NCBI GenBank assembly: GCA_001784435.1
Contig: MFQZ01000009.1
Location: 11,324 to 75,323, forward strand
Direction: 5' to 3'
Length of the DNA stretch: 64,000 nt
DNA from: Candidatus Magasanikbacteria bacterium RIFOXYC2_FULL_42_28
GTDB taxonomy: Bacteria > Patescibacteriota > Patescibacteriia > Magasanikbacterales > GWA2-37-8
In this document: positions 1 through 61,243 of the stretch, in pieces
How the letters are laid out: the number at the start of each line of letters is the position of its first letter
How positions within the stretch are numbered: position 1 is the stretch's first letter
Notes under the pieces: model-generated
Database searches by the model: none
Told to the model about the DNA's origin: nothing
What the model saw: the letters and a program-made list of their open reading frames with translations, nothing else
Translations under genes and position numbers: made by a program

Positions 1-1654
1 GGACGGTAGTGCCATTAACATCCGTACCAACAACTGTAGGTACAATATTATTAGCAGTTGTAGCCCCATCAGCCTGCACATCAATGGCAGAAAAAGTAAG
101 CGCATAACGATCATCATTGCCACCATATGGCGAACCACCACCCAAAGTCGCGCGCGCAACTATTGATTTATTTGTACCTTTTGGAATTGTATATGAGCCA
201 CCACTAAATTTACCAGAATGAAAAACGGCATTACCCGAAGCATCAACCAAAACCGGACCGGCAATTTTGGTAGTCCCGGAATACAAATTAATTTCATTTA
301 TTATATCGCGAGCATTAACAGCGCCTTCAATCGCATTAGCAAAAATACCATCTACATTCTCGTCTATATAAACATGTAGCGTCAAATTTGTTAGCCGAAT
401 ATCTTCGTTTGTGCCAGCTGACAAAAGTAACCCGAGGGAGTCAATACCAGCCGAACCATCATTTATCACCGTTCGAGTTACCGGCGTCGCGGAACGAACA
501 ATAGTGAGACTGCCACTTGGTGGAACAGGCGGAGGCATGCATGCTCCACCTTTACACGTATAACCACTGGCACAAGCTACTTGTGTAGAGCTAGCGAACG
601 TATTAAAACACATTTGCTCTGAAACCGTAGTGGTGTTGACACATGAATCATAATTAGTAGTAAAGACCGTGCCTCCAACACTAATAGAAACCGAACTACT
701 GACCATAGTATTAACCCCGCCATCGCCATCCGTACAAACAATCGGTTTACAAGCACCGGCCACACAGACATCATGAAAAGCACAGGAAGTTGTAACATAA
801 GAAACCGACGAACCGAAACCACAAACTGCTTCTAGCACTCCAATTGAAGGAGTAGACGTAGAAGCACATTTATCCGGCAACGAACTCAAAATATTTCCAT
901 TATTCAAATCAACCACCTTAGCCACCGATGATATATTTACATTACCACCATCAATATCAATACATTTCTTTACCGGGCTATAAACACAACGACCGACACT
1001 ACAACTAAACCCATCCGGACAAGATAACGCAGTTTTAGAAATAACTCCGCCACTACAAGTACCTTCCGAAACTCTACCAGAACCGGTACAAGTGTCCAAA
1101 GTGGAAGAAATCATCCTACCGCCGGACCATAAGGATGTTAGATTTTGACTAATTAAATTCAACCCACCGTCAGGATCAGAACAACCATTCACACACTTAC
1201 CCCCAACTTTTTTCATTCGCGTCGGGCTATAACAAGAATAGGTATAATTACTTGAACCGGAACAACCATTATTAAAATTTTCTGTTAAAGAAATTCCATT
1301 GGCCAGTTGACGACAAGAGCCATTAACGTAAGAATCGGTAAAAGATTTGCTGGTAATGGCGCCAACGCAAGGAGCGCGCCAAATTAAGCGAAAAGTGTTA
1401 TTATTTAGACAAACATAGGTATAACCTTTTCCAGCCGTACAACTATTTAAATATTGCCGTTCCGTGGCCACGCCACCGGCAACAGCGCTACACGATGTTA
1501 CGGTCAAATAAGTTGTTGGTGGTCTAATAGGCGCGACTGCCAAAGCCACATTGCCGGCAACAGCCAAAGCCAAAGTCGCCACTGCCAATTTTAATTTCGT
1601 GACGCTACCAGTTTTTACCAGCGTCATTGTGCCCATTGTGTCGGCTGTGTCCAT
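1..1654 (-). CDS. Cysteine-rich repeat secreted/surface protein (N-terminal 551 aa; gene runs off the window start)
   Basis: Hand translation of the minus strand from ATG 1654..1652 shows no stop through position 1. It is absent from the ORF track because it is open at the window edge. The N-terminal hydrophobic anchor is LKLAVATLALAVAGNVALAVA, followed by repeated ~50-aa Cys-rich modules (C..DxDGG..N..C). Confidence 0.55.
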   Translation of the reverse strand, partial: MDTADTMGTMTLVKTGSVTKLKLAVATLALAVAGNVALAVAPIRPPTTYLTVTSCSAVAGGVATERQYLNSCTAGKGYTYVCLNNNTFRLIWRAPCVGAITSKSFTDSYVNGSCRQLANGISLTENFNNGCSGSSNYTYSCYSPTRMKKVGGKCVNGCSDPDGGLNLISQNLTSLWSGGRMISSTLDTCTGSGRVSEGTCSGGVISKTALSCPDGFSCSVGRCVYSPVKKCIDIDGGNVNISSVAKVVDLNNGNILSSLPDKCASTSTPSIGVLEAVCGFGSSVSYVTTSCAFHDVCVAGACKPIVCTDGDGGVNTMVSSSVSISVGGTVFTTNYDSCVNTTTVSEQMCFNTFASSTQVACASGYTCKGGACMPPPVPPSGSLTIVRSATPVTRTVINDGSAGIDSLGLLLSAGTNEDIRLTNLTLHVYIDENVDGIFANAIEGAVNARDIINEINLYSGTTKIAGPVLVDASGNAVFHSGKFSGGSYTIPKGTNKSIVARATLGGGSPYGGNDDRYALTFSAIDVQADGATTANNIVPTVVGTDVNGTTV

Positions 1655-1705
1655 ATATTTTAAAGTTAATCCCATAAAAATGGGTAATAAATTTAATTTG
1701 CGTAT

Positions 1706-1801: not shown

Positions 1802-2161
1802 CTAAAACGGCACCTCATCTTCAAGCACTTCATCTAAAGTCGTAGAATTCATACACCGACCATCATAACAAATCGGCAATTCGGTCGGACAAGTAAATAC
1901 CGAACTGGAAACAACTGGCATTGGTGAATTTGGGGCGCAATAATATTCCAATAAATTTCTATCATCTATACACTCATCTCTTTCGGTGGATATCAAAGCA
2001 TCGTTGAGATAACTTTTTGTATAACCTCGCTCACCTAAATTTTTGCCTGTATCTAAATCTTGACAACGGTGGACATTAATTGGAGTCGTAGTATTTACAC
2101 ATGCACCATCTACACAAAAAGGAGCACCAGCCGGGCAACGATACATACTATAATTAGCCAT
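1802..2161 (-). CDS. Small cysteine-rich protein, translationally coupled to the upstream gene
   Basis: ORF track 1802..2245. The likely true start is MANYSMYRC at 2161, where the ATG overlaps the TAA of the upstream gene (ATGGCTAA). It has repeated C..DG.C motifs and no obvious signal peptide. Confidence 0.4.
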   Translation of the reverse strand: MANYSMYRCPAGAPFCVDGACVNTTTPINVHRCQDLDTGKNLGERGYTKSYLNDALISTERDECIDDRNLLEYYCAPNSPMPVVSSSVFTCPTELPICYDGRCMNSTTLDEVLEDEVPF

Positions 2162-2947
2162 ATATAGAAGGGCCGCTATAAGAACCGGCTGATTCAAACA
2201 ACATGGCCTCGATATCACTGCTATGCGCCAAAGTGGTGGTACCAACTAAACAATATTGCTCATATACAGCTCGATCGCCAGCGCACCAATCAACGCGTGG
2301 GGGCTCAAGATCAAAATGACTACCAAAACCCATTTCATAGTTGACTGCTTCTCCCTTGTAGTACAGATTCGCCCCACCATCACTATCGCGACACCGCCGA
2401 TGTTCAGGCGGATAACTAGTTAAACATTTTCCATGATAACAACCATAGGGAAGACAACGGTGTGTTGTGGTGTTAATGTCAGTGCCGGCAGTATTACAAG
2501 ATGCCTCAACTAAATCAAAAAAATTTTTACAAACATCCGCCACAGATATTCCGCCTATTACAGTAGAAGTGCCAGCAACACTATAATCATAACCACTTGG
2601 GTTATCTTCGTCAGTATTTATACAACTCACCCGACATGACCTAGAACACACCTTGTATGATTTGACCGATTCGCAAGAGTAATAATTTGATTTCTCACGT
2701 GGTGATTTAGTACGACATCTGTTATCTAAAAAAACTGGTGCACCGGAAAATGATGAGCGTCTTATATAAATTCCGTGTAACGCTGTAGTGCAAGACGCCA
2801 CCTTATATTTTACACAACCACTCATCGGAATAATTTTTGCTGGTGTAACCGCCAACACCGCCACATTCGCCGCGAGTAGCGCGAACGTCGCAACCATTAA
2901 TTTAGTATAAGTAATCGTGCTGGTTTTAACGGATGTGACAGTTTCCA
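2154..2947 (-). CDS. Cysteine-rich secreted protein
   Basis: ORF track 2154..3035. The probable start is METVTS at 2947, followed by a signal peptide (MVATFALLAANVAVLAVTPA). The mature part is rich in Cys pairs. Confidence 0.5.
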
Positions 2948-3016
2948 TATTTTTTTCATCAGTAATTAATTTTGAAAAAAGCATAAAAAATTTATTAAAG
3001 AAGGCCAGAGTCAGCC

Positions 3017-46763: not shown

Positions 46764-46834
46764 GGGCCCATGGTCTAGTGGTATGACACGGCATTCGCAT
46801 TGCCGGAGCGGCAGTTCGATTCTGCCTGGGTCCA
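46764..46834 (+). tRNA. tRNA-Ala (CGC)
   Basis: The acceptor GGGCCCA/TGGGTCC has G3:U70 and A73. The anticodon loop is TTCGCAT and the T-loop TTCGATT. CCA is not encoded. Confidence 0.8.
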
Positions 46835-46925
46835 CACGGCTTCACTGCGTTACGCCGTGTAAACTACGGCTATTAAATTAAATACAAAGTAGAGTTTACA
46901 GGGCGTAGCCGTAGGCGAAGCCCTG

Positions 46926-47533: not shown

Positions 47534-49837
47534 ATGTTTCAGAAACAGTTGGCAAAATTTTTTGAGTTTGGGTCGTATATTTTATTGTTGTTATCAGTAT
47601 TGTTGGTGCCGATGGCCATTGATAACCAGCTGGTGAATTCGTATATCATACCAAAACAGTATGTATTAGGGGGATTGGTTTTGCTCGCGGCATTATTTTG
47701 GGCGGCGCGGGCGGTAGTAACTAAAAAGGTTTCTTATATTCAATCATTTGCCGACAAGCCCTTGATTTTATTTCTGTTAGTCGCTTTACTCACGGCAATT
47801 TTTTCTGCCAATCGTAGCAGTTCGTTTTTAGGAGTGGCTGATTATTATATTTTGAGTTTTGCGTCTTTTGTGGTTTCGGTGCTTTTTTATTTTTTAATTG
47901 TTAATCATTTCACCACGGCCAAACGTTGGCGTCTCGGCGTTGATTTGACGGTATTAGTTGGTGGTGTTTCGGCAACGTTATTTTTATTGCGCACTGTTTT
48001 TAATTTTGATGTTTTGTCTAAGTTGGGGATCTCGGCCTGGAATCTGATTGACCCAACTAACACCGCGTTTGGAATTTGGCTCGTTGCTATTTTTATGCTT
48101 TCGGCCGGTCAATTAATCAAGAAAAATTGTCCGGTCGGTCGGTCGTTGTTTAATTTTTTTGTGGCTTTGCTCGCGGTGGCGTGTCTCTTAACTTTAGGGT
48201 TTGATGTTTTGTGGTGGGTGTTGTTGATTGGTTTAGCGTTGCTGTTATTGTTAGGTGTAACATTTTTGCGTGAAGCGCGTTTGGGGTGGTTGACGGTTTT
48301 GTTTGCTCTGCTTGTTACCGATATAATTTTTATCACTTTTAATTCGCCTAAAGTTTTACAGACCAGCGTGCCGGTAGAAGTGGCGCTGGGCGCGCGACCA
48401 TCTTGGGATGTTACCAGCGCGACGCTTGGAGGCGGGGTAAAGAGTTTTCTTTTGGGTTCCGGTTTGGGTACTTTTGGCGTGGATTTTTCTCGTTATCGCA
48501 GTGTGGATTTTAACAACGACCCAGTCGCGTGGTCATTGCGTTTTAATCAACCGTTTAATACTTTATTGGCATTTTTGTCAGAGGGCGGGTTGTTGCTGGC
48601 GTTGGCGTTTGTTTTTGTGGTGGTCTTTTTCTTGGGGCATATTTTGTATGTCTGGCTTGGGCAAAGAGCGGAAGTAATGTTTGGCGGGTTGTCCGGAGAT
48701 TTGGGTTGGAAGTCCGGAGATTTGCGGTTTGAAATATTTTTAGTGTCTTTGGTTTGGGTGCTACTGACTATTTGCACGGGGTTTGCTTTTTTTGGACAAA
48801 GTTTGTGGTGGTTGTGGTGGTTTTTGCTTGGACTTTCCGCCAGCGGTTTGGGTTTTATTTATTCTAAGGCACATAATTTGCGCGAGTGGGAAATAGAAGA
48901 CGCGCCGCAATATAGCTTGTCCTTTTCTTTTATTTTAGTGGTATTGTCAGCCGGGATTGTAATGTCGGGGGTGATTGGGGCGCGAATGTATATGGCGGAA
49001 CGAGCGTACGCGGTCGCGGTTAGAGCCGATGATTTGGATACAGTAGAAATAAATTTAAAAAAGGCGATTAGTTTGCGTGATAATTACAGTGTTTATAATT
49101 TTTATATGGCGCGCTTGTTTTTGTCTCGGGCGGTTGAAGCCAGTAAAAATTCCAATCCAGACCCCGCGGTAATAAGCGCGCTTATGAGTAACGCGGTAAA
49201 TACCGCTCGTCGCGCTACCGATATCGCGCCGGCATCGGTGGGGTTGTGGGAAAATTTAGCCACGATGTATGAAAACGCGGCAGTGATAGTGCCGGAAGCG
49301 CGTGATTGGGCGGTGAAATCTTGGATGAAATGTACTGAATTAGAGCCCACCAACCCGGTCTTGTGGTTGCGACTGGGGAATAATTATTTGGCGAGCGGGA
49401 ATAACGAAGACGCGAAGAAAAGTTTTGAGGAGGCGATAAAATTAAAATCTGATTATGTCGTCGCGAGCATTTCTTTGTCGCAGATTTATGAGACCGAACA
49501 GAATTTTGAAAAGGCGGTTGAAATATACGAAAAAATTATGACCATAGCCGGCAATAACGCGGAGGTGGCTTATAACTATGGTCGTTTGTTGTATAACCGC
49601 AATGCCAAAGGTGATCGCGACGGGGCCGAACAGATTTGGCTAAAAGTGATTGAAGCGCAACCGAATTTCTCCAATGTTTTGTATAGTTTGGGGATGTTGT
49701 ATGAAACGCGTGGCGATAAATATAAAGCGTTAGATTATTATTATCAAGTAAAAGAATTAAATCCGGATAACAAAGATATCACAGCGAAGATTAAATCACT
49801 CGTCGGTGTACCGGTGGCTGAAGTCAATAAAAAATAA
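47534..49837 (+). CDS. O-antigen-ligase-like (Wzy_C) polytopic membrane protein with C-terminal TPR repeats
   Basis: ~12 TM helices with a large periplasmic loop are followed by TPR-like repeats (AEVAYNYGRLLYNRN...VLYSLGMLYETRGDKYKALDYYYQ). Confidence 0.6.
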   Translation: MFQKQLAKFFEFGSYILLLLSVLLVPMAIDNQLVNSYIIPKQYVLGGLVLLAALFWAARAVVTKKVSYIQSFADKPLILFLLVALLTAIFSANRSSSFLGVADYYILSFASFVVSVLFYFLIVNHFTTAKRWRLGVDLTVLVGGVSATLFLLRTVFNFDVLSKLGISAWNLIDPTNTAFGIWLVAIFMLSAGQLIKKNCPVGRSLFNFFVALLAVACLLTLGFDVLWWVLLIGLALLLLLGVTFLREARLGWLTVLFALLVTDIIFITFNSPKVLQTSVPVEVALGARPSWDVTSATLGGGVKSFLLGSGLGTFGVDFSRYRSVDFNNDPVAWSLRFNQPFNTLLAFLSEGGLLLALAFVFVVVFFLGHILYVWLGQRAEVMFGGLSGDLGWKSGDLRFEIFLVSLVWVLLTICTGFAFFGQSLWWLWWFLLGLSASGLGFIYSKAHNLREWEIEDAPQYSLSFSFILVVLSAGIVMSGVIGARMYMAERAYAVAVRADDLDTVEINLKKAISLRDNYSVYNFYMARLFLSRAVEASKNSNPDPAVISALMSNAVNTARRATDIAPASVGLWENLATMYENAAVIVPEARDWAVKSWMKCTELEPTNPVLWLRLGNNYLASGNNEDAKKSFEEAIKLKSDYVVASISLSQIYETEQNFEKAVEIYEKIMTIAGNNAEVAYNYGRLLYNRNAKGDRDGAEQIWLKVIEAQPNFSNVLYSLGMLYETRGDKYKALDYYYQVKELNPDNKDITAKIKSLVGVPVAEVNKK

Positions 49838-49850
49838 GCGGAATTAATTT

Positions 49851-50489
49851 ATGCGTAATTTTTTGGCAATAATTTTAATCGCGCTTGGGCTTGTGGTTGA
49901 CCCGGTTATTTTGCGCGCGGCGATGTCGTCCACGGATTATTATATTTACGCGGATGATTTTAGTATGGGCGGTGGTTTGAGTACCGGTGGCGAATATAGT
50001 TTACAAGATACGATTGGTCAATCGCCGGTCGACGCAATTAGTGGTGGTAGTTATGCTTTAAGCGCCGGGTATCAATTTCAAACGCTTGGAACAATCAGCA
50101 TGTCAATTTCCAGTTCGTCGTTGAGTTTGGGGACGTTGTCTGCCACGGGCGCGTCGTCAACAGCCGAGACCACGGTTACGGTTATTACTGATTCTGCCAG
50201 TGGGTATGTTTTATCGGTTTCAGATGTAAGTGGCGAAAGTTTAACGCCGGTGGCCGATGACGCGGTGGATGGTAATGGTGATTCCGAGGAGTATGGGTTG
50301 GCGGTGAGCGGGAGTGACGCGGATTTTGCGACCGATGAACCGGTGGCGACCAGTTTAACATTGGCTTCCAATTCTGAAATAGCCAATGGTAACGCGACCG
50401 TTTTGACTTTTAAGGCAATTCGCGGGGTGTCTTCTACCGCCGATACCTATAGCCAGAGTATTACACTTTCGGCAGTGGCGAATTTTTAA
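49851..50489 (+). CDS. Secreted Ser/Thr-rich hypothetical protein
   Basis: A signal peptide is present, and the sequence is Ser/Thr/Gly-rich with no Cys or Trp. Confidence 0.35.
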   Translation: MRNFLAIILIALGLVVDPVILRAAMSSTDYYIYADDFSMGGGLSTGGEYSLQDTIGQSPVDAISGGSYALSAGYQFQTLGTISMSISSSSLSLGTLSATGASSTAETTVTVITDSASGYVLSVSDVSGESLTPVADDAVDGNGDSEEYGLAVSGSDADFATDEPVATSLTLASNSEIANGNATVLTFKAIRGVSSTADTYSQSITLSAVANF

Positions 50490-50539
50490 TCCCGCTTCGC
50501 CTTTGGCTACGCAGGACAAGTGCCTGATTTAATAGTTTA

Positions 50540-51418
50540 ATGGTCATGAAAAAAATTTTCTTAATTATTTTACTGGGGATTTTGGCACCGACTTTGGGGG
50601 CGCGCGCCTTTTCTTTAAGTCCATTGAAATATATTTTTTCTGTGGAACGTGGTGAAAGCACGGTGATTACAGTAACTCTAAATAATTATGAATCCGGGGT
50701 GATTGCCTTGGAGCCGGCGGTGGTGGGGATGAAAACCGACAAAGCCGGTCGGCCGGTTTATGATAGCACAGCCGAGGTAATTGGTTGGGTAAAGTCGGAT
50801 TGGAATTTTATAAATTTAAAAGAAGGCCAAGGCCAAAAAGTTCATTTTTTAGTTACCGTTCCAGCTGGCGCGTATCCGGGTGATTATTATTTAGGTGTCG
50901 GCGCGAAACGCGTTGCCGGTGTCGGCGCGGTAAGTATCGGTGAGCAACTTTTGACAGTAGTGAATTTGAAAGTGGCTGGAACTGCGCGCGAGGATTTGGT
51001 GGTGAAAAAATTTGAAGTTAGTGGAAAATTTTTTGAAAAAAATAAAAAATTTAATTTGGAAATTGAAAATAAAGGCAATGTGGAAATGCCGATAAGCGCG
51101 GTTTTAAAAATAAGCGATTGGCGTGGGCGGATAATTTTGGAACAGCCGGTTGCGGTGGGAAATAAAATTTTGCCATTAGCATCGCGAGTAGCATCAACCG
51201 ATTTTGTCATTGCGAGGAGCGAAGCGACGCGGCAATCTATCGTGCCGGGTTTGTATCAAGTGGATTTAACAGTTGATTACGGTTTGACTAAACAAAAAAT
51301 TACCGCGGTGGAAAATTTTTGGTATGTGCCAACTTGGACGTTGGGTGTGTTGGTGGGGGTGATTATATTGGTGGGATTAATTATTTTTATTAAAAATAGG
51401 AAAAATTTTGGGTATTAA
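50540..51418 (+). CDS. DUF916/DUF3324-like cell-surface protein with a C-terminal TM anchor
   Basis: A signal peptide is followed by FSLSPLKYIFSVERGESTVITVTLNNYESGVIALEPAV (a DUF916-like start). The C-terminal TM ends in the basic tail KNRKNFGY. Confidence 0.4.
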   Translation: MVMKKIFLIILLGILAPTLGARAFSLSPLKYIFSVERGESTVITVTLNNYESGVIALEPAVVGMKTDKAGRPVYDSTAEVIGWVKSDWNFINLKEGQGQKVHFLVTVPAGAYPGDYYLGVGAKRVAGVGAVSIGEQLLTVVNLKVAGTAREDLVVKKFEVSGKFFEKNKKFNLEIENKGNVEMPISAVLKISDWRGRIILEQPVAVGNKILPLASRVASTDFVIARSEATRQSIVPGLYQVDLTVDYGLTKQKITAVENFWYVPTWTLGVLVGVIILVGLIIFIKNRKNFGY

Positions 51419-51427
51419 ATATTACTC

Positions 51428-54400
51428 ATGTTTAGTCCGAAAAAAATATTTTTTACAATTTTGACAGCAGTGCTGGCGGTTGGTTTATCAACCGCCTCTT
51501 TAGTATTAGCCGAAACGCAAACCGGGGGGTTGACAGTGGGGGTTACTATTGGGAGTGACGCTGTTTGTGGAAATGGCGCGGTTGAAGGCGATGAGGCCTG
51601 TGATGCCGGCAGTAGTAACGGGCTTTGTTCCGCGACTTGTAGTACCAGTTGTACGGTTAAGGCCACGACCGATTGTGGTGGCGGTGGCGATACCGACAAT
51701 TCTCCGACAATTTCCAATGTAACCACTACTCTGATTACGGTTAACAGCGCAACGGTGAGCTGGAACGCGACTGATAACAACGGAATTTCCACCTCCACTT
51801 TTGTTTATGGAATTGATATCAATTATGGCAGTAGTGCGACAATATCAGGTTCCAATCCGTATAGCGTAAATTTATTCGGTTTATCTGCCAACACGGTTTA
51901 TTATTTTCAAATTTCCGTTACTGATACTGGCAGTCATACCGTTGAATCTACTGGCAGTTTTACGACTTTATCAACGGCGGTAGGAGATACCATCCCTCCT
52001 AATATTTTTAATGTTATTGTTTCCCCAATCGGCGTAACTATGGCGACAATTTCATTTGATACCAACGAGTTGACGACAGCGCAAATTAAATTTAGTTCCG
52101 ACTTTTCTTATGCCAGCAGTACGGCCTTGGACGCGGTTTTGGCTACCACACACACAATTTCAGTGCTGGGTTTATGGCCGGATACTACCTATCATTTTCA
52201 AATTATCGCCAATGATGAACCGAATAATACCACCACCACTTTGGATGCTACCTTTACTACTTTGCCGGCGCCGGCCGTGGCCGATGTTGGTCATTTTGAA
52301 TTATCACCGTCATTTGAAGCAATTACTTTAAGTTGGGATTTGCCTGATTCTCCGTATTACGACCATATTATATTAAATCGTCAAGTTACCGGCGATCCGG
52401 CCACATTGGTAGAGTTGCCGGTTGATCCATTGGATAGTTTATTTATCGATTATGGGATTGATTTTAATATCAATTATACCTATACGATTTATGTCGTAGA
52501 TATTTTTGACCAACAAAGCCAAGGGGTATCGGTAAATGGCGAAGTTTTAGCATTTGGTTTAGAGGATTGTGATAACGGTGATGTTGACGATGATGGCGAT
52601 GGTGATGCTGATTGTGGTGATTTAGACTCTTGTTTCTCCCACCCCCACTGTGTAATTGAGGAAGTGTGTCATGATGAAAATGGTGATGGCTTGGAAAATT
52701 GTGATGATCCGAGTTGCGCTGGCAATGCGGTATGTTTAGCATTACACGAAGATGAGATTTGCGGTAACTTGTTTAATGATAACGGCGATGATTTTGAAAG
52801 TGATTGCGAAGACCCTGACTGTGCCGGATTCCCCGACCCGCAATGTGTCCTTTTTGATGTCGTGGCTTGTTCGGACCAGCAAGACAACGATGGCGACGGC
52901 CAAATTGATTTTGGCAATGACACCGGTTGCGTGAGCGCTGGTGATAATGACGAAAGTGACGACACGGTGCCGAGTTTTTTACAGTTGAATGTTAATGATA
53001 TTAAATTTTTTGCCGGTAATCGTCAAATTCCTTTGGCGCCGGTTAATGAAGTGGTGAGCAGTTTGGCTGGTAGTAACTTTACTGTGGCGGTCGCGCCGGC
53101 AATTACTCCCCAGGCAGTTACCTTGGTTTTGGAAGGGGCCACTTATCAGTTTGGCTTTAATGCGGTGGATAATATTTATTATTCAGATTTTACTTTGCCA
53201 TTTGTTGGTGTGCATAGCGCTTATTTAAATATTGATTATGGCAATGGCCAACAGGATAGCGTATTGATTAAAATAAATTGTTTGCCTTGGGGGCAAGTGG
53301 AAAGTGGTGGTGAGCTAATTGCGGGCGTGGAAATGTTTTTGCTTGATACCAATAATGAAAAAATATATTTGGGTGAATACGGTCAAACTAATCCGGTTTT
53401 GACGAGCGCGAGCGGGTTATATGGCTGGTCGGTATTGCCTGGTCACTACCTCGTGCGCGCAAACAAGGAGGGATTTTATGAACGGACTGTTCAAATTTAT
53501 GAGGTAAAAAATAATTCCATTAACGCGAATATTGATTTAATTAAAATGCCGACTAATTGGTTAGGGGCCATAGACGCGGCGCGGGGGTTGGCTCTACAAG
53601 CGGTAAATGATGTTGCCGATAATCCGGCAGTGGAGCAAGTCGCCCAGCAGGTAGTGGCGCCGGTGGCAGTAGGGGTGTCAGCGGTGGGGACGATTTTGGT
53701 GGTGCCGTGGTGGAATTTGTTGGCGCTGTTACGTTTCTTATTTTTACAACCGCTTTTACTTATCGGTCGGGGCAAACGCAAACAGTGGGGCATGGTTTAT
53801 AATTCTTTGAGCAAAATGCCAATTGATTTGGCAATCGTGCGTTTGTTTGACGCGACCACCGGCAAATTGTTGCGTTCGCGTGTTACCGACGAACACGGTC
53901 GTTATGCGTTTATTATGCCACCAGGCAAATATCGTCTGCAAGTGGTAAAAATGAATATGACTTTTCCCTCCGTGTTGTTAGCCGGTATTACGCACGACGG
54001 CAATCGGCCGGATATTTATCATGGTGAAGAAATTATTGTTAATGAAAAAAATGTTTTGATTACGGCCAATGTCCCGCTTGATCCGTCCGGAGATGGTAAA
54101 ACGCCGAAACGGATTTTGCGTGAGCGGTTTTGGCGTAAAGTGCAGTCGGGCGTGTCCGGTTTGGGTTTGGTTTTCACTTTGGTCGCGTTATATATTTCAC
54201 CGCGTTGGTATATGTGGGTTTTGGCCGGGGCGCATATTGGTTTGATGTTGGTATTTAGACGTTTGGCAAAACCAAAAACTGCCAAGGGCTGGGGAATTGT
54301 TTCCGATACTGTCACGAGTAAACCGGTGGGGCGCACGGTGGCGCGTTTGTTTGATACCAAATTTAATAAATTGGTGGCCACCGAAGTTACTGATAAACAC

Positions 54401-54562
54401 GGGCGGTATAACTTTTTGGCCGGTGATAATAAGTATTATGTTACCTATGAGCATGAAAATTACGAGACGACTAAGACCGATGTACTGGATTTAACCGGTA
54501 AAGAAGAGGACGCGATCGCGACAGACGCGAAGTTAAAAAAGAAAGATTTATCCACAGAGTAA
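51428..54562 (+). CDS. Large surface protein with a myxo-type Cys-rich repeat, fibronectin-III-like domains, an Asp/Cys-rich module, CarbopepD_reg-like domains and C-terminal TM segments
   Basis: CGNGAVEGDEACDAGSSNGLCSATCSTSC matches CxxGxxExxExCDxG...C. Three segments resemble Fn3 (VSWNATDNNG.., ISFDTNELTT.., LSWDLPDSPY..). The Asp/Cys module is DCDNGDVDDDGDGDADCGDLDSC. Three DEHGRY/DKHGRY beta-sandwich units are present. Confidence 0.55.
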   Translation: MFSPKKIFFTILTAVLAVGLSTASLVLAETQTGGLTVGVTIGSDAVCGNGAVEGDEACDAGSSNGLCSATCSTSCTVKATTDCGGGGDTDNSPTISNVTTTLITVNSATVSWNATDNNGISTSTFVYGIDINYGSSATISGSNPYSVNLFGLSANTVYYFQISVTDTGSHTVESTGSFTTLSTAVGDTIPPNIFNVIVSPIGVTMATISFDTNELTTAQIKFSSDFSYASSTALDAVLATTHTISVLGLWPDTTYHFQIIANDEPNNTTTTLDATFTTLPAPAVADVGHFELSPSFEAITLSWDLPDSPYYDHIILNRQVTGDPATLVELPVDPLDSLFIDYGIDFNINYTYTIYVVDIFDQQSQGVSVNGEVLAFGLEDCDNGDVDDDGDGDADCGDLDSCFSHPHCVIEEVCHDENGDGLENCDDPSCAGNAVCLALHEDEICGNLFNDNGDDFESDCEDPDCAGFPDPQCVLFDVVACSDQQDNDGDGQIDFGNDTGCVSAGDNDESDDTVPSFLQLNVNDIKFFAGNRQIPLAPVNEVVSSLAGSNFTVAVAPAITPQAVTLVLEGATYQFGFNAVDNIYYSDFTLPFVGVHSAYLNIDYGNGQQDSVLIKINCLPWGQVESGGELIAGVEMFLLDTNNEKIYLGEYGQTNPVLTSASGLYGWSVLPGHYLVRANKEGFYERTVQIYEVKNNSINANIDLIKMPTNWLGAIDAARGLALQAVNDVADNPAVEQVAQQVVAPVAVGVSAVGTILVVPWWNLLALLRFLFLQPLLLIGRGKRKQWGMVYNSLSKMPIDLAIVRLFDATTGKLLRSRVTDEHGRYAFIMPPGKYRLQVVKMNMTFPSVLLAGITHDGNRPDIYHGEEIIVNEKNVLITANVPLDPSGDGKTPKRILRERFWRKVQSGVSGLGLVFTLVALYISPRWYMWVLAGAHIGLMLVFRRLAKPKTAKGWGIVSDTVTSKPVGRTVARLFDTKFNKLVATEVTDKHGRYNFLAGDNKYYVTYEHENYETTKTDVLDLTGKEEDAIATDAKLKKKDLSTE

Positions 54563-54602
54563 TTTTATTAAAAATGTGGTATAATATATGGAAGAGAAGT
54601 GA

Positions 54603-57600
54603 GTGATTATGGCAATTATAGGATTGAAAAATTTATTAAAATTATCAAGCCGAATTTTTGTAATATCCGCCATATTTTTGTCCGCAATTTTTAGTTTATG
54701 GTTATGGCAAAATAGCGCGGTCGCGGCGATCGCGCCATCAGTAATTACTTACCAAGGTAAAGTATTAGTAAGCGGTTCACCAGCGTCATCTACTTTATCA
54801 ATGAAGTTTGTTTTGTATGACTCTTTAACTGGTGGCACTGCGCTCTATACTGCTTCCGGCACTTTGCCAACCACGAGCACAATTAGTATTACTCCTTCCA
54901 GTGGTATATTTAGTGTTGATCTTGGTGGTAGTGGTACAAACACGATTGATCCAACTATTTTTCAAAATAACAGTAGTGTATATTTAGAAGTAACCATCGG
55001 CAGTCAAACCCTTACCCCCCGAAAACAAATCACTGCCGCTCCTTATGCTTTCAACGCTAAATATCTAGATGGTCTCGCCACTTCATCATTCGCCAAACTT
55101 GGATCCAATGAAACGGTTACCGGCACTTGGACCTTTTCGGCAACCACGACTATGGTCACGACGACGGTGAGTGGGAGGTTAGGTATTGGGACGACCACGC
55201 CAGATCAAGCGTTGACAGTGGTGGGGAGTATTAGTAATCCGGTGAATGGGAATTCTGGGATAACAGAAATTGCGACTCTATCAACAGGTAACGACCCGTT
55301 TGCGATATTTGTCTCTGGTCGGTATGCTTATGTGGCCAATTCTGCTTCTAGCACCATGACTATAATTGATATTTCTAAACCAACCGTGCCGGTGCAGGTA
55401 GCAACAGTTTCTGTCGGAAATTCACCGCGTTCCGTATTTGTTTCTGGTCGTTATGCGTATGTTGGAAATTATGGACATGGCACTATATCCATCGTGGACG
55501 TGTCTAATCCATTTTCTCCTGTTGTTGTTGCTACCCAGCAGGATTTGCCGGGTATCCCATCTTCTATTTTTATCTCCGGTCGGTATTTGTATACCACCTT
55601 ACAAGGCCAAGATATCTTGGCGGTTGTTGATATATCAGATCCGCTGACTCCGGTTTTGGCTGCGGCTGTCACTGTCGGTGATTACCCACAATCAGTTTTT
55701 GTCTCCGGTCGTTATGCTTATGTGGCGAATAGAGCATCCGGCACCATTTCTGTGGTTGACATATCTAATCCTTTGTCTCCAGTCCAAATTGCCACGACCT
55801 CTGTTGGTGTTTGGCCTAGTTCTATAGCTGTCTCTGGTCGTTATGCTTATGTGGCCCATGATTCTGATTTGTTTATTTCTGTAGTGGACGTGTCTAACCC
55901 CGCTATCCCAGTTCAAGTGGCTACCACCTCTGTCGGTTTTGTACAGTCGTCCGTATTTGTTTCCGGTCGTTATGCGTATTTTAGCACGGGTATTACTGCA
56001 AATGATTTAGGCAATCTTTCGGTTGTGGATATTTTAAATCCGTTGGTACCGGTTTTAGTGGCAACTACGCCGGTTGGAAAAAATCCACAATCAGTTTTTG
56101 TCTCCGGTCGTTATGCTTATGTGGCTAATGCGGGGCCTCTTGCGGGCAATGGTGGGGAAAATACTATTTCCATCATCGATCTCTCCGGCGCCGAATTTTC
56201 CACCCTAATCGCCCACTCCGCCGAAGTCGGCCAAATCCAATCGCGCAATGACATCATCGCTCAAGGCATAGTTGGCGCCAACAGTTTACAAATCGGCAGT
56301 GGTGGTATCCTCTCTAACGGGCCCATCAGTATCACCGCCACCGATACCTATTCTTACTTCGGCGGTGGCATTACCGCCACCGGCACAGTAACCACTACTA
56401 ATTTGGCGGTCATCGGCAATGCCACTTTTGGTGGCACATTGTCGCTGGGCAATACCGACATCACCGGCAATCTTACTGTCTCCGGCAACGCTACTACCAC
56501 TGGTAATCAAGTAATATCCGGCACACTTAATATTTCCGGCACTTCCACTCTCGTTACCACCACTGCCACTGCCTTAACTGTCACTGGCACATCAACTTTA
56601 ACAAATATTTCATCCACTGGCATTTCCAATCTAGGCACTTTAAACGTTTCTGGCAGTACCATTCTTTCTGGCACATTAAATGTAACCGGCACATCAACTT
56701 TGGCCACTACCACCATTTCCAAATTAACCATTAGCAGTCAAGGTATTATTATTTCCAGTAGCACTCCGGTCGTTACTTCTTCCACTTTGTATAATGTTGG
56801 TGACACCCTTTATTGGAACGGCAACGCCTTATCAACCTCTACTGGTAGCGGTTTGCCGTCTAGTATTGATGGCCAAATTTTATTCTCCGCTGGTTCTACT
56901 TGGACCGCGACTTCGGCGATTAGTATTGTGAGTACAACTGGTAATGTTGGTATCGGTACCACCAACCCAGGTACTTTGCTCACAGTCCACAACACCAATA
57001 TCGCTTCGGCCACTTCTTCCACTTTAAAACAATCATATTTATCAGTTGACCAAATGGCCTTGTCACAATTAGAAGGTGGAGCATATTTTGGCCGAACAAA
57101 AATAAAAAATAATAATTGGGTAGTTCAAGTAGCGGATAATTTTGTTTTGAGTGAGGCACCGTTATCTATGAAGGGTTCGGCTGGTTCGGCTGATGGGGAA
57201 ATTTTAGCAATAGTTTTAGATGGCAATCAAATCGGGCTGTTTTCCGGTTTTGATGCTGATGTTCAATTGGTGGCTAGCGTTCAAAATTGGGAGGATATCG
57301 CGATGTCCGTTGATGGTAAAATTATGTCGGCTGTGATTGATAATGGCGGGATTCATCGTTCCATTGATTATGGCGCCACTTGGGCGACCTCATCCGCTTT
57401 GACAAAAAATTGGACAGGTATTGCAATGTCGGCCGATGGTAAATATCAAACGGCCGTGGCCACCGGTGATAGCGTTTATATTTCTGCTGATTTTGGTGTT
57501 ACCTGGATCGCCAAAGACAGCAGTCGCGCTTGGACCGGTGTGGCCATGTCATCGGACGGTAAATTACAAATTGCCACTGTTTCAAGCACCGGCAATATTT

Positions 57601-60600
57601 ATCTTTCGGTTGATTATGGTAGTACTTGGGTTGCTAAAGCCAGTGCCAATGATTGGGACAGCGTGGTTATGTCGGCTGATGGGCGGGTAGTATTGGCCGG
57701 AGTGAATAGTGGCAATCTTTATCTTTCCACTAATTACGGCTATTCTTGGACAACCACTACCGCTCCGACCGGAGCTTGGAGCGCGGTCGGTATGGATGGC
57801 GATGGTAAATATCAAGTGGCCGGAATTTCGGGTGGGGCGTTATATATATCTGGTGATTATGGTTCCACTTGGGCCACTTCAACGTCAGCTACGAGTGGGG
57901 TTTGGTATGATATTGACGTTACGGCCGATGGCGCTACGGTGGTTGCAACGGACAATGTCGCGGGGTATTATATCAATCAGGCCGATCAGTTTAGTTTAAA
58001 AAATATTGCGATTGGCGCGACTACGGTTGCCAGCGGTTTGGCGCTTGATGTTACCGGTGTTGGTTCTTTTTCCGGTAATTTATCGGTTGGTGGCGGTTTA
58101 ACTGTTACCGGTAATGCTACCAGCACTAATTTTATTGCGACCGGCAATGTTGGAATTGGCACCACAACACTTACCGAAAGATTAAATGTTAAAGGTAATA
58201 TTAATTTGGTCGGCAATCTTAATTTAGCAACCGGTACGATAAAATATTCCGGCAGTAATTTATTGTCAATTACCGGTGGCGCGTCATCAGTTGCTTTAGG
58301 GGTAAATGCCGGGCACAGTGCAACCGGCACAGGTAATGTGTTTGTTGGCAGTGGAGCCGGCCAAAACAATGATTCTGGTTATAACAATACTTTTATTGGT
58401 CTTAATGCCGGGCAGACTAATACCTCATCGGCCGGGAACACCTTTATCGGGGCGACCGCTGGCGCTAGCAACACATCTGGTAGTAGTAATGTCTTTGTTG
58501 GTTCGGGGGCGGGGGGGCTTAACACTACCGGTCTGGGTAATTCGTTTTTTGGTGCTCAAGTGGCCAGTGCCAATACCAGCGGTAGCATTAATTCGTTTTT
58601 TGGAGCCTACGCCGGCATTGCTAATACTGAAGGCGGCAATAATTCGTTTTTTGGAGCATACGCCGGCACTGCCAACATTACCGGTAATTATAATGTATTT
58701 ATTGGCGAATACGCCGGATCAAGTGTTACTTCCGGGTATTCCAATACTTTTTTGGGCGCGCGCTCTGGTTATTTGAATATTATTGGGGCCGGTAATGTGT
58801 TTTTAGGCAATCAAGCCGGTTATAACGAGACAGGCTCTAATAAATTATATATTGCCAATTCCAACACAGATTCGCCTTTGATTTATGGTGATTTTAGCGC
58901 GAGTGCCTTGACGATAAATGGAAGTTTAACGGTGTCATCAACTAACACTTCTACTTTTAATAGTAGCATTAATATCACCAGCGGATGTTTCGCGGTCGGT
59001 GGAAATTGTTTGTCAGACGGCACTACTCTTAATACCACCGTGCTTAATGTTAGTAGTACTCTTACCACCAACAGCACCACAATTTTGGTTGGTAATAATT
59101 ATTTTAATTTTACCGGGGCAAATATTGGTGGAAATGATTATGCGTCTTTATCTATCGGTAATGGCGCATCTTCCACTAACGGAGCGGTAGCAATTTGGGG
59201 TGATACCACGGTTGGGCCAAGATTTATGTTAGTGGCGACCACATCCGCGCCTTCTGCCACTGTTGGCGATAGTCCGATTTTTGTCGTTGATATGACTAGT
59301 GGTTATGCGCGCGTGGATATTGGCAGTACCGGTAACGCCAAATCAGGATTGTTAAGATTATATGATAACGCCGGTGTGAATAAAATTTATTTGAGCGCCA
59401 GTTCTACCGACGGCGATTCGTTTGTGTTGGATAATTTTTTAGTGGGCGCGAATTCCGAGAGTATTGCCAACACTGGTTTTGTTTTAACTAATAACAACAG
59501 TTTATACACCGAAGGCGATTTGGGTGTTAATGGTAATATTTATACCGACGGGGCAATTTATATTTCTGGCACTTCTACTTTGGCTATTACCACTATTACC
59601 GCCTTAACTGTATCTGGAGATGTAACTCTATCTACCTCCACTATCTTTTTAAATAATGTTGGCAGCTTCACCAGCTCAACCGCTTTTATTTTTAATGTTG
59701 CTAATTTTTCTTTGTCTGCCGCTGATAGATATATTTTGTCTTTACGTTCTAATAACGCACCAGTATTTTCCGTCTCCGCCAATGGTGATGTTAATACAGT
59801 AGGTAGTTTGCATGCGTTTTCAGCCACTGTTGGGGCCGATGGTAATCCCGGTGACTTGGCCGAACGCGTTGATATTGCCGTTGATGATATCGCCGAAGCT
59901 GGCGATGTGGTCGTGGTTGATCCAAATAATATTGATACCTATCGCCGTAGTAGTGAGGCATATAGTCAATCCGTGGCTGGAGTAATTTCTACCGCTCCAA
60001 CCATCGTAGTTGGTGATGGTAAAACTGATTACACCGCTGTCATGGCTATGATTGGTCGCGTGCCAGTTAAAATTTCCAGTGAAAACGGCGCGATTAAGCG
60101 TGGTGATTTATTAGTGTCGGCATCGCTTCCCGGTTACGCGATGAAATATAATCCGGAAGATGATAATGGTTTGAAGATGGTGGGTATTGTGGGTGTGGCT
60201 TTGGATAGTTTTGCCGATGTCGGCGGAACCGGGAAAATTATGGCTTTAATCCGCACCGGTTGGGTCAATTCGCGTGGGCAAACTATCAATGATATTAAGA
60301 GTGACTTAGAAACTTTGGCGCAGAGTCAAGGTGTGAATATTAATTCTAATCCAAGTGATTTGACAGTGGAGCCAAGTGGCGGTAATTTGGTGTATAGCAG
60401 TGGTAATTTGAATTTACATGGTGGCAGTTTGTTGGGCGTAGCGGCGATTTCCGGCTTGAATGGTCGGTGGGAAATAAACGCTGATGGTTGGTTTATCACG
60501 CGCGTTGACACCACGAGTGGGCAAAAAGAAATGTATGGTTTGCAATCACCGGCCGCGGAATTTGTATTTTCCAGCTCATCACAGTTGATGAATGGTGAAG

Positions 60601-61106
60601 CGCGGGTTACTTTTGATGTTGCCGCGCAGGAAATTATTGATACGGACGCGATATTAAAAGTAAGTGTAACTTTAACATCGGGCGAAGCAATGGGTGTGTA
60701 TGTAACTGATAAAAATGCGACTGGTTTTACGGTAAAAGAAGTAGGGAATGGCACAAGTAACGCGACTTTTGATTGGGTGGTGGTGGTAAAGCAAAAAGAT
60801 CCCAATACTCCGGTAAGCGCGCCGGTTAGTGAACCAATAATAGACACGCCCGTTTCCTCTGGCGATTCTAGCGGTTCGTCAACCACCTTAACCACCGAAA
60901 CGCCACTGGTTATTGAATCAACCACAACCTCAACTACTGAGCCAGCGCCAGCACCGGTTGAAATCCTAACCCAGGAACCGACTGCCACAGTTGAGCCAAC
61001 ACCAGAAACAACGCCTGTGCCTGAACCAGCGCCGGTAGTTGTTGAGCCCACCCCTGAACCAGCGCCAGCACCGGTTGAAATTCCATCCTCGGAACCAGCA
61101 CCTTGA
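54603..61106 (+). CDS. Giant (2167 aa) cell-surface protein with LVIVD-like propeller repeats, BNR/Asp-box repeats, NxFxGxxAG 14-residue repeats and a Pro/Thr/Glu-rich tail
   Basis: After a signal/TM segment there are ~9 units of VFVSGRYAYVAN...ISVVDISNP (LVIVD-like). Six SxDxGxTW Asp-boxes follow (SIDYGATW, SADFGVTW, SVDYGSTW, STNYGYSW, SGDYGSTW). There are ~12 tandem repeats of the form NVFVGSGAG.., NTFIGLNAG.., NSFFGAYAG... The C-terminus has PAPAPVE/EPTPE repeats. Confidence 0.6.
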   Translation: MIMAIIGLKNLLKLSSRIFVISAIFLSAIFSLWLWQNSAVAAIAPSVITYQGKVLVSGSPASSTLSMKFVLYDSLTGGTALYTASGTLPTTSTISITPSSGIFSVDLGGSGTNTIDPTIFQNNSSVYLEVTIGSQTLTPRKQITAAPYAFNAKYLDGLATSSFAKLGSNETVTGTWTFSATTTMVTTTVSGRLGIGTTTPDQALTVVGSISNPVNGNSGITEIATLSTGNDPFAIFVSGRYAYVANSASSTMTIIDISKPTVPVQVATVSVGNSPRSVFVSGRYAYVGNYGHGTISIVDVSNPFSPVVVATQQDLPGIPSSIFISGRYLYTTLQGQDILAVVDISDPLTPVLAAAVTVGDYPQSVFVSGRYAYVANRASGTISVVDISNPLSPVQIATTSVGVWPSSIAVSGRYAYVAHDSDLFISVVDVSNPAIPVQVATTSVGFVQSSVFVSGRYAYFSTGITANDLGNLSVVDILNPLVPVLVATTPVGKNPQSVFVSGRYAYVANAGPLAGNGGENTISIIDLSGAEFSTLIAHSAEVGQIQSRNDIIAQGIVGANSLQIGSGGILSNGPISITATDTYSYFGGGITATGTVTTTNLAVIGNATFGGTLSLGNTDITGNLTVSGNATTTGNQVISGTLNISGTSTLVTTTATALTVTGTSTLTNISSTGISNLGTLNVSGSTILSGTLNVTGTSTLATTTISKLTISSQGIIISSSTPVVTSSTLYNVGDTLYWNGNALSTSTGSGLPSSIDGQILFSAGSTWTATSAISIVSTTGNVGIGTTNPGTLLTVHNTNIASATSSTLKQSYLSVDQMALSQLEGGAYFGRTKIKNNNWVVQVADNFVLSEAPLSMKGSAGSADGEILAIVLDGNQIGLFSGFDADVQLVASVQNWEDIAMSVDGKIMSAVIDNGGIHRSIDYGATWATSSALTKNWTGIAMSADGKYQTAVATGDSVYISADFGVTWIAKDSSRAWTGVAMSSDGKLQIATVSSTGNIYLSVDYGSTWVAKASANDWDSVVMSADGRVVLAGVNSGNLYLSTNYGYSWTTTTAPTGAWSAVGMDGDGKYQVAGISGGALYISGDYGSTWATSTSATSGVWYDIDVTADGATVVATDNVAGYYINQADQFSLKNIAIGATTVASGLALDVTGVGSFSGNLSVGGGLTVTGNATSTNFIATGNVGIGTTTLTERLNVKGNINLVGNLNLATGTIKYSGSNLLSITGGASSVALGVNAGHSATGTGNVFVGSGAGQNNDSGYNNTFIGLNAGQTNTSSAGNTFIGATAGASNTSGSSNVFVGSGAGGLNTTGLGNSFFGAQVASANTSGSINSFFGAYAGIANTEGGNNSFFGAYAGTANITGNYNVFIGEYAGSSVTSGYSNTFLGARSGYLNIIGAGNVFLGNQAGYNETGSNKLYIANSNTDSPLIYGDFSASALTINGSLTVSSTNTSTFNSSINITSGCFAVGGNCLSDGTTLNTTVLNVSSTLTTNSTTILVGNNYFNFTGANIGGNDYASLSIGNGASSTNGAVAIWGDTTVGPRFMLVATTSAPSATVGDSPIFVVDMTSGYARVDIGSTGNAKSGLLRLYDNAGVNKIYLSASSTDGDSFVLDNFLVGANSESIANTGFVLTNNNSLYTEGDLGVNGNIYTDGAIYISGTSTLAITTITALTVSGDVTLSTSTIFLNNVGSFTSSTAFIFNVANFSLSAADRYILSLRSNNAPVFSVSANGDVNTVGSLHAFSATVGADGNPGDLAERVDIAVDDIAEAGDVVVVDPNNIDTYRRSSEAYSQSVAGVISTAPTIVVGDGKTDYTAVMAMIGRVPVKISSENGAIKRGDLLVSASLPGYAMKYNPEDDNGLKMVGIVGVALDSFADVGGTGKIMALIRTGWVNSRGQTINDIKSDLETLAQSQGVNINSNPSDLTVEPSGGNLVYSSGNLNLHGGSLLGVAAISGLNGRWEINADGWFITRVDTTSGQKEMYGLQSPAAEFVFSSSSQLMNGEARVTFDVAAQEIIDTDAILKVSVTLTSGEAMGVYVTDKNATGFTVKEVGNGTSNATFDWVVVVKQKDPNTPVSAPVSEPIIDTPVSSGDSSGSSTTLTTETPLVIESTTTSTTEPAPAPVEILTQEPTATVEPTPETTPVPEPAPVVVEPTPEPAPAPVEIPSSEPAP

Positions 61107-61144: not shown

Positions 61145-61215
61145 AAGGGCCCGTAGTATAACGGTAATACACGTCCATGGCATGGATGAGTTAAGGGTTC
61201 GATTCCCTTCGGGTC
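61145..61215 (+). tRNA. tRNA-Ala (GGC)
   Basis: The acceptor GGGCCCG/CGGGTCC has G3:U70 and A73. The anticodon loop is ATGGCAT and the T-loop TTCGATT. Confidence 0.8.
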
Positions 61216-61216
61216 C

Positions 61217-61243
61217 ACAAAACTTCCTGTTCAAGGAAGTTTT
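61217..61243 (+). terminator. Terminator AACTTCCTGTTCAAGGAAGTTTTTT
   Basis: A perfect 7-bp stem plus T6, directly after the tRNA. Confidence 0.6.

Follow-up and report, generated by a model that had tools for sequence, protein, structure and literature searches.

The C-rich domain of the animal teneurins has been solved for human Teneurin-4 at 1.5 Å with three Ca2+ ions bound (7PLP; Meijer et al., EMBO J 2022; PMC9058538). The ions are coordinated by E835, D840, D843, N844, D845, D847, D851, D854 and D856 together with backbone carbonyls, with sites I and II resembling those of thrombospondin type-3 repeats and site III that of the LDL-receptor class A domain, while the six cysteines pair 1-3, 2-5 and 4-6, and removal of calcium destabilises and extends the teneurin ectodomain (PMC9058538). 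The core of this domain resembles a diatom enzyme and the metal-binding motif of MopE (Tucker et al. 2012; PMC3278476), and the cross-kingdom link of the teneurin C-rich domain has been known in outline since 2012. A homologous module is encoded in a 64,000-nucleotide stretch (the window) of Candidatus Magasanikbacteria bacterium RIFOXYC2_FULL_42_28, within a single open reading frame (ORF) of 1044 codons at 51428..54562 (+), the product of which is 100% identical to the GenBank hypothetical protein A3J93_05255 of this organism. The window accordingly represents chromosomal DNA of a member of the Patescibacteria, in agreement with the housekeeping genes and tRNAs found in its other parts.

The protein is probably best explained as an exported, acidic surface protein of the Magasanikbacteria which combines two known kinds of cysteine repeat and uses one of them as a calcium-rigidified spacer stalk. 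It would be Sec-exported, membrane-anchored and very acidic, and would form part of a five-gene surface cluster conserved across the Magasanikbacteria. Its two cysteine-rich features would be small, extracytoplasmic, disulfide-stapled modules of known kinds, namely one TIGR02232/DUF4215 repeat directly behind the signal peptide and a run of NF033662 repeats between the third fibronectin type III (Fn3) domain and the membrane-proximal beta-sandwiches. By homology, the well-preserved units of this run (units 1 and 3 and most of unit 4) would bind Ca2+ through a D-x-D-x-D-G core and the D-C-x-D-x-D that follows it, and the acidic array as a whole would form a compact stalk, made rigid by calcium, which keeps the distal Fn3 domains at a distance from those nearer the cell.

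The 21 cysteines of the protein are distributed over amino acids (aa) 47-83 (six), aa 381-501 (fourteen, as 4+4+4+2) and aa 618 (one), so that 20 of the 21 are packed into 17% of the sequence, in two blocks with an even count each. The peptides from these blocks which an earlier note on this DNA had quoted are found exactly in the translation: CGNGAVEGDEACDAGSSNGLCSATCSTSC corresponds to aa 47-75 (nt 51566-51652), DCDNGDVDDDGDGDADCGDLDSC to aa 380-402 and CHDENGDGLENCDDPSC to aa 414-430. The description of the protein as a giant was misplaced, as it has only 1044 aa, and it is the downstream gene product of 2167 aa which is the giant. Both modules were missed in Pfam and NCBIfam scans of the full protein and were found by scanning fragments. 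The acidic block, where Asp and Glu make up 33% of aa 378-512 and Lys and Arg are entirely missing, is divided as follows, with scores from an independent single-unit hidden Markov model (HMM) built from 1405 repeat units of proteins outside the family:

52562..52651, + strand: acidic double-disulfide unit 1 (aa 379-408; Cys 381, 396, 402 and 408; 11.4 bits at aa 379-408)
52658..52735, + strand: acidic double-disulfide unit 2, degenerate (aa 411-436; Cys 414, 425, 430 and 436; 14.4 bits at aa 416-436)
52748..52846, + strand: acidic double-disulfide unit 3 (aa 441-473; Cys 445, 460, 465 and 473; 15.0 bits at aa 443-469)
52865..52963, + strand: terminal two-cysteine acidic unit (aa 480-512; Cys 481 and 501; CSDQQDNDGDGQIDFGNDTGC...DNDES; 12.9 bits at aa 480-494)

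The HMM comparisons place this block in the NCBIfam family NF033662 ('acidic double-disulfide repeat', acid_disulf_rpt) as three four-cysteine units and one two-cysteine unit. The isolated module fragment scores 25.5 bits (E=8e-6; 8.2e-6) over four stretches, below the curated cutoff of 41 bits, and the full-length 1044-aa protein is matched at E=0.14, while the homologs P0002, P0004, P0011 and P0007 reach 126, 109, 106 and 43 bits, respectively. The window module shares with the family the tandem units of approximately 32 aa of the form E-x-C-x-[ND]-G-x-D-[DN]-D-G-D-G-x-x-D-C-x-D-x-D-C-x5-C, but unlike in typical members its copies are degenerate: single residues are inserted, three residues are deleted at one place, and the last unit has only two cysteines. 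In this terminal unit, for which the best NF033662 stretch is aa 479-503, Phe occupies the position of the second cysteine. Units of the form C-x-DG-x-DNDGDG-x-ID-[FY]-P-x-DPGC in P0044 (Kofleriaceae), P0045 (Myxococcota) and other proteins are similar to it, so that it represents a two-cysteine subtype which also occurs in Myxococcota proteins.

Asp/Gly/Cys-rich sequence of low complexity and without a defined fold could resemble such repeats by chance, and the low AF2 (AlphaFold2) confidence for the modules in the full-length model, the subthreshold scores on both curated HMMs and the high HMMER bias term for the ORF (72.7) would be in line with such an origin. Over the four units the single-unit HMM scores the module at 43.4 bits in total, however, and none of 3000 composition-preserving shuffles reached this score, the best attaining 13.4 bits. 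Among the 304 six-frame ORFs of the window only this protein scores (36.1 bits; next best 2.5), the cysteine columns are invariant across the 23 modules of alignment A3, and homologs exceed the curated cutoffs two- to three-fold. The shuffle control and the homolog scores refute a chance resemblance, which is left with a negligible probability.

When the profile of the 23 aligned modules was compared with all PDB sequences, the C-rich domain of human Teneurin-4 was retrieved (7PLP, chain 7plp_A, E=4e-7), followed by Teneurin-2, Teneurin-4 and Teneurin-m ectodomain chains at E=7e-5 to 2e-3 (Teneurin-2 at 6.9e-5), and EF-hand proteins appeared only from E values of about 0.1 upwards. Nowhere in the 1044-aa protein is the strict PROSITE pattern of the EF-hand loop matched. 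In the reverse direction, the NF033662 HMM scores 40.0 bits (E=2.3e-10) on a 35-residue Teneurin-4 peptide and 35.5 bits on that of Teneurin-2, and no Pfam-A model covers either of these C-rich peptides or the bacterial acidic double-disulfide repeat. These profile comparisons show homology between the acidic module and the C-rich domain of teneurins. The core sequence is shared between the bacterial consensus CDDGVDNDGDGLVDCADPDC and Teneurin-4 CGDSKDNDGDGLVDCMDPDC, all of the acidic calcium ligands of the latter sit on conserved columns of the bacterial repeat, and in teneurin the domain is likewise located upstream of a transthyretin/carboxypeptidase-regulatory-like domain, although an extra beta-sandwich separates the acidic module from the CarboxypepD_reg-like domain in the window protein. 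Teneurin, an animal type II membrane protein, contains a single copy with six cysteines and an extra 4-6 disulfide, whereas the window encodes a tandem of three four-cysteine units and one two-cysteine unit in a bacterial, type I-like protein.

Thrombospondin type-3/Ca-binding repeats were the resemblance proposed for this block in the earlier note, and it might be a genuine TSP_3 family array such as the COMP-like DxDxDG region of Myxococcus CglD, which provides a bacterial precedent (bioRxiv 10.1101/2023.10.19.562135). As in the thrombospondin type-3 repeats (PF02412; TSP-1 1UX6, COMP 3FBY), Asp-rich D-x-D-x-D-G loops are combined with disulfide staples, [DN]x[DN]x[DN]G motifs being present at aa 385, 387, 416 and 486 within the cysteine block as a resemblance at the level of motifs only, and two Ca2+ sites of the homologous teneurin domain match the coordination of TSP-1 type-3 repeats (PMC9058538). 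The unit length and cysteine pattern differ, however, agreeing instead with NF033662 and the teneurin C-rich domain, and there is no detectable sequence relationship. Pfam gave neither a TSP_3 (PF02412) match nor a match of any kind on the window module at E<=10, the modules of six homologs had no TSP_3 match listed at E<=1, and the PDB search with the 23-module profile, which found teneurins and weakly EF-hand proteins, returned no thrombospondin or COMP chain. Membership of the TSP_3 family is therefore highly improbable. The earlier proposal was right on the chemistry and wrong on the family, its Ca-binding-like sense being well supported by the homology to the teneurin C-rich domain.

The acidic units could alternatively be MopE-type motifs which sequester or sense transition metals such as copper instead of calcium. 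In this direction point a weak match of PF11617 (Cu-binding_MopE) to the homolog P0004 (E=2.4e-4, 21.7 bits, cutoff 27) and the work of Tucker et al. (PMC3278476), who aligned the MopE motif with the core of the teneurin C-rich domain, while PF11617 has no match on the window module, the motif offers only carboxylates with no His or Met ligands, and the sole solved relative binds Ca2+ in octahedral oxygen-ligand sites, making transition metal binding improbable.

The conservation of the calcium ligands was evaluated by aligning the window units and Teneurin-4 to the unit HMM with hmmalign, using the ligand list of PMC9058538. Asp, Asn or Glu is found at all nine teneurin ligand positions in unit 1, which has two one-residue insertions, and in unit 3, which has a one-residue insertion (S458) and a longer Cys3-Cys4 loop. 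A three-residue deletion removes the D840 equivalent from unit 2, where Ser also replaces the D856 equivalent, and unit 4 retains six of the nine positions with an intact D-N-D-G-D-G-x-I-D core. Calcium binding by the module is plausible in view of its homology to the teneurin C-rich domain. As the four bacterial cysteines correspond to teneurin cysteines 1, 2, 3 and 5, with two in the last window unit, 1-3 and 2-4 disulfides are predicted, in agreement with the name 'double-disulfide'. By homology, these would be C381-C402 and C396-C408 in unit 1, C414-C430 and C425-C436 in unit 2, C445-C465 and C460-C473 in unit 3, and C481-C501 in the terminal unit.

Several observations weigh against a calcium-loaded, disulfide-stapled stalk. 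The window copies of the acidic repeat are themselves degenerate (NF033662 25.5 bits, where the cutoff is 41), with insertions in units 1 and 3 and two ligand positions lost from unit 2, and the bacterial unit is without the third disulfide found in teneurin. No match was obtained in a phmmer search of the window module alone against PDB. In the full-length AF2 model both cysteine modules have a predicted local distance difference test (pLDDT) score below 50, and modelling of aa 372-520 with alignment A3 raised the mean to only 70. A Foldseek search with the latter model gave three PDB chains at E<=10, of which the best two, 7plp_A and 7plp_B, are the sole matches to a cysteine-rich domain, superposing with a TM score of 0.67 and a root-mean-square deviation of 1.9 Å over 37 columns at 38% identity, but their E values of 1.6 and 4.1 are not significant. 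Dsb, thioredoxin and VKOR genes are lacking from the 64-kb window by a CxxC scan and Pfam analysis of candidate ORFs, and no experimental work on any bacterial member of the acidic repeat was found in the literature. Of the CxxC-bearing candidates for a thiol-disulfide oxidoreductase, the single ORF of suitable length and location proved by Pfam to be a TGT, and another a DksA-type zinc finger. Literature searches on the family accessions and on Magasanikbacteria in combination with cysteine-rich proteins likewise found nothing relevant.

The second module is located near the N-terminus, behind the hydrophobic segment:

51428..51511, + strand: Sec-type signal peptide/hydrophobic N-terminus, from reading of the sequence (aa 1-28, MFSPKKIFFTILTAVLAVGLSTASLVLA|ET)
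51557..51679, + strand: N-terminal cysteine-rich acidic repeat of the TIGR02232/DUF4215 type, single divergent copy (aa 44-84; Cys 47, 58, 67, 71, 75 and 83)

Cleavage of the signal peptide would occur after aa 28, and the hydrophobic N-terminus is also kept in homologs of the protein. The earlier note had assigned the cysteine module to TIGR02232, and this stands by way of the homologs and not by the score of the window copy. TIGR02232 scores 11.9 bits (E=0.15) on the isolated fragment aa 41-93, under its curated cutoff of 20.8, with no match on the full-length protein, and PF13948 (DUF4215; curated cutoff 27 bits) has no match on the fragment. The N-terminal repeats of the homologs P0005 and P0006, which follow the canonical CGNGVVEG-x-EQCDDGN-x3-GDGCS-x2-C, reach 52.6 and 51.6 bits with TIGR02232 and 35.8 and 38.5 bits with PF13948. 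In alignment A4, columns C6, G7, N8, E15, C17, D18, G20, G24, C26 and C30 are invariant between the window copy and these two, four cysteines being shared, and an alignable repeat is found at the N-terminal position in seven members of a 13-protein family alignment. Since the P0005 and P0006 copies at the same aligned position pass the cutoffs, the module is considered, by position and alignment rather than by its own score, to be a divergent single copy of TIGR02232. It shares CGNG-x3-G-x-E-x-CD-x-G...C...C and four conserved cysteines with the 'cysteine-rich acidic repeat' (formerly Myxococcus cysteine-rich repeat) of TIGR02232/PF13948. Unlike the arrays of that family, it is a single copy with two extra cysteines, has DAGSSNG in place of the canonical DDGN-x3-GDG and is below threshold alone. 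The spacing is C-x2-G-x3-G-x-E-x-C-D-x-G-x5-C, two spacers having been swapped in the earlier pattern C-x2-G-x-G-x3-E. A regular expression scan found one copy of this type in the window protein and no tandem array, whereas the homologs P0007 and P0008 do hold tandem copies. In the homolog P0002 a Hint/PT-HINT (intein-like) domain (PF07591; aa ~80-330), visible in the alignment as CFLSGTKILLPD..., is inserted right behind the N-terminal cysteine repeat.

A phmmer search of the window N-terminal repeat alone against PDB gave only disintegrin matches at E>2, and the profile of the seven N-terminal copies marginally resembles the first residues of disintegrin domains from ADAM17 and snake venoms (E=0.005-0.1; ADAM17 at 0.005), which should be taken as a hint and not as a result. 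Bacteria of the candidate phyla radiation (CPR) are commonly host-attached, and with this similarity, the position of the module at the distal tip of the protein and the location of the gene within a conserved surface-protein cluster, it might be considered that the modules act directly in adhesion or recognition, the acidic calcium-loaded units or a disintegrin-like cap binding a host or partner in the manner of teneurin, thrombospondin or ADAM proteins. A site for specific binding should be conserved, and the distribution of the modules across the family makes such a function rather unlikely.

This distribution was assessed among the best 80 of 383 stretches retrieved with the C-terminal alignment A2 in a scan of species-representative genomes, the ORFs being located by local tblastn. 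Nearly all of these relatives are from metagenome-assembled genomes (MAGs) of Magasanikbacteria or other Patescibacteria. Many of the MAG records (loci L002, L004, L005, L010 and others; TPA, third party annotation, assemblies) are titled 'uncultured Gammaproteobacteria bacterium' and one 'Candidatus Udaeobacter'; these titles are probably placeholders or result from misbinning, as the loci share the Magasanikbacteria-type neighbourhood. Of the 80 relatives, 58 contain acidic units, and a TIGR02232-like start is found in twelve, in only about eight of which it is N-terminal. Among the 67 full-length relatives, twelve are without an acidic unit, 13 have one, twelve have two, 22 have three, four have four and a further four have five, and two relatives have two cysteines or fewer in the whole protein. 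In the closest relative (L001) the terminal unit is accompanied by four canonical ones, compared with three degenerate ones in the window. The slot of the acidic module is also occupied by unrelated repeats in some homologs: that of P0007 and P0008 also houses DUF4215 repeats, and in P0009, P0010, P0012 and P0014 (aa ~590-840) it is filled with three to seven copies of another four-cysteine repeat, CG[ND]xxCExxE[TS]xxxCPxDC, which has no Pfam or NCBIfam match at E<=1 and may represent an undescribed repeat family. Conservation within the family is instead highest in the C-terminal anchor, with a mean column identity of 61%. Because the number of units is variable and the module is both replaceable and dispensable, a structural role as spacer or stalk is most likely for the acidic module, rather than that of a specific binding site.

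Beyond the family, a search of 1.84 billion representatives with the profile of the acidic repeat yielded 14,318 protein clusters at E<=1e-3, of which 1,614 reach E<=1e-30, and the repeat often adjoins trypsin or PPC domains in these other proteins, i.e. in secreted proteins. With this abundance, and with acidic units in 58 of the 80 Magasanikbacteria and other Patescibacteria relatives, the range given in the earlier note, of a pattern otherwise typical of Myxococcota and eukaryote-like proteins, proved too narrow.

The remainder of the protein consists of beta-domains and hydrophobic regions, the latter delimited by family-averaged hydropathy and charge and by the helices of the AF2 model:

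51695..52549, + strand: three tandem Fn3 domains (aa ~90-182, 188-280 and 284-374)
52985..53551, + strand: two membrane-proximal beta-sandwiches (aa 520-627 and 628-708), the second CarboxypepD_reg-like with SASGLYGW in place of DxHGRY (AF2 pLDDT 80-91)
53639..53770, + strand: hydrophobic region 1 (aa ~738-781; AF2 helices 733-752 and 761-785), followed by the basic patch RGKRK
53783..54091, + strand: CarboxypepD_reg-like beta-sandwich 2 (aa 786-888), with TDEHGRY at aa 820-826
54137..54268, + strand: transmembrane hairpin (aa ~904-947; AF2 helices 894-923 and 927-947), with flanks of +5 and +5 net charge
54287..54541, + strand: CarboxypepD_reg-like beta-sandwich 3 (aa 954-1038), with TDKHGRY at aa 988-994 (AF2 pLDDT 80-88; weak bMG3 match at aa 962-1008)

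The Fn3-like domains which had been recognised earlier are confirmed as three, with a Pfam fn3 (PF00041) match of 26.4 bits (gathering threshold 25), further Pur_ac_phosph_N-like and Arylsulfotran_N Ig-like matches, beta strands over aa 94-372 in the AF2 model (pLDDT 75-88) and three-FnIII arrays as the best Foldseek matches (E~1e-12). The three DxHGRY beta-sandwich units separated by transmembrane helices that had also been described correspond to three CarboxypepD_reg-like units with two hydrophobic regions between them, and only two of the units carry a literal DxHGRY. PF13620 matches the full protein in three stretches at 52.9 bits (cutoff 32.3), best at aa 788-841, SdrD_B (PF17210) scores 36.5 bits, the fragment aa 520-728 (nt 52985-53611) is matched by CarboxypepD_reg (E=1.5e-4) and PEGA (E=0.14), and the profile of alignment A2 has a weak match to NOMO2 (E=0.0014). 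The three units have the T-D-x-x-G-R-Y-x-F...G-x-Y motif in common with the CarboxypepD_reg, NOMO and SdrD-B beta-sandwiches. Unlike in those proteins, two of the three are interleaved with hydrophobic (transmembrane) regions with conserved basic patches flanking these, and no description of such an arrangement was found.

The ectodomain (aa 29-742) is very acidic, with 13 Lys and Arg residues against 102 Asp and Glu (net charge -89). Only two Lys and Arg residues are present across the three Fn3 domains, and 43 in the C-terminal 304 residues (aa 741-1044). The signal peptide, together with the contrast between the net charge of -89 and the basic juxtamembrane patches, suggests that the ectodomain is exported. 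The LRFLFLQPLLL motif of hydrophobic region 1 is conserved in the family, as are the net charges of +3, +5 and +5 of the membrane-flanking segments. As conserved basic patches flank both hydrophobic regions, beta-sandwiches 2 and 3 may be cytoplasmic, which is favoured by the positive-inside rule. The length of region 1 (~43 residues, two predicted helices) would also allow a hairpin, in which case both sandwiches would be placed outside.

The gene belongs to a conserved cluster of five genes (47534-61106) located between tRNA-Ala(cgc) (46764-46835) and tRNA-Ala(ggc) (61147-61218), with the following neighbours:

47534-49837, + strand: polytopic membrane/TPR protein, upstream, syntenic in 51 of 80 loci
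49851-50489, + strand: secreted protein of 212 aa, upstream, syntenic in 53 of 80 loci
50540-51418, + strand: protein of 292 aa with a signal peptide and a C-terminal transmembrane segment, upstream, syntenic in 58 of 80 loci
54603-61106, + strand: LVIVD-repeat surface protein of 2167 aa (LVIVD E=1e-36), downstream, present in 63 of 80 loci

The 292-aa protein (50540-51418) has predicted beta-rich domains and a weak, subthreshold match to PF06030, the peptidoglycan-binding domain of WxL-interacting proteins (E=0.16), and in its architecture it may be reminiscent of the DUF916-type proteins encoded in the WxL loci of Gram-positive bacteria. In the LVIVD giant, conservation is highest over the C-terminal ~400 residues (aa ~1670-2080; 59610-60840), with 58-60% identity across loci, and this part has no Pfam match other than a chance-level one to Tailspike_C (E=0.2). 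Elsewhere in the window, two ORFs without a Pfam family on the opposite strand encode secreted-looking, cysteine-rich proteins, that at 1-1675 (-), which is cut by the window edge, with 26 cysteines and C-x-D-x-D-G-G-x-N repeats, and that at 2154-2984 (-) with 15 cysteines. Judging from these two ORFs, extracytoplasmic disulfides would be numerous in this organism.

The protein, a lineage-specific surface protein, is not surprising in kind, both repeats being already curated families. On a more speculative level, it might be the calcium-stiffened 'leg' of a Magasanikbacteria-specific surface apparatus encoded by the cluster (the TPR membrane protein, the 212-aa and 292-aa proteins, the protein described here and the LVIVD giant), where the length and rigidity of the leg are under selection, the three unrelated disulfide-knot repeats (teneurin-like, DUF4215 and CGNxxCExxETxxxCPxDC) are interchangeable and beta-sandwiches 2 and 3 are cytoplasmic. 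This arrangement is considered doubtful, though if it were true the protein would be a transmembrane connector of an undescribed kind, and bacterial surface proteins such as this one, rather than the diatom enzyme, would be the source reservoir of the teneurin C-rich domain. For a hypothetical family conserved across a CPR lineage, the analysis provides a concrete and testable annotation as a protein predicted to be exported, with modules which would be disulfide-bonded and probably Ca2+-loaded, and the solved structure 7PLP can be used as a template for this family of CPR surface proteins. The 'unique' teneurin C-rich fold has its counterpart in a tandem repeat which is very abundant in prokaryotes (14,318 protein clusters) and still without a Pfam model, and these bacteria with tiny genomes appear to invest in an extracytoplasmic architecture which depends on disulfides and calcium.

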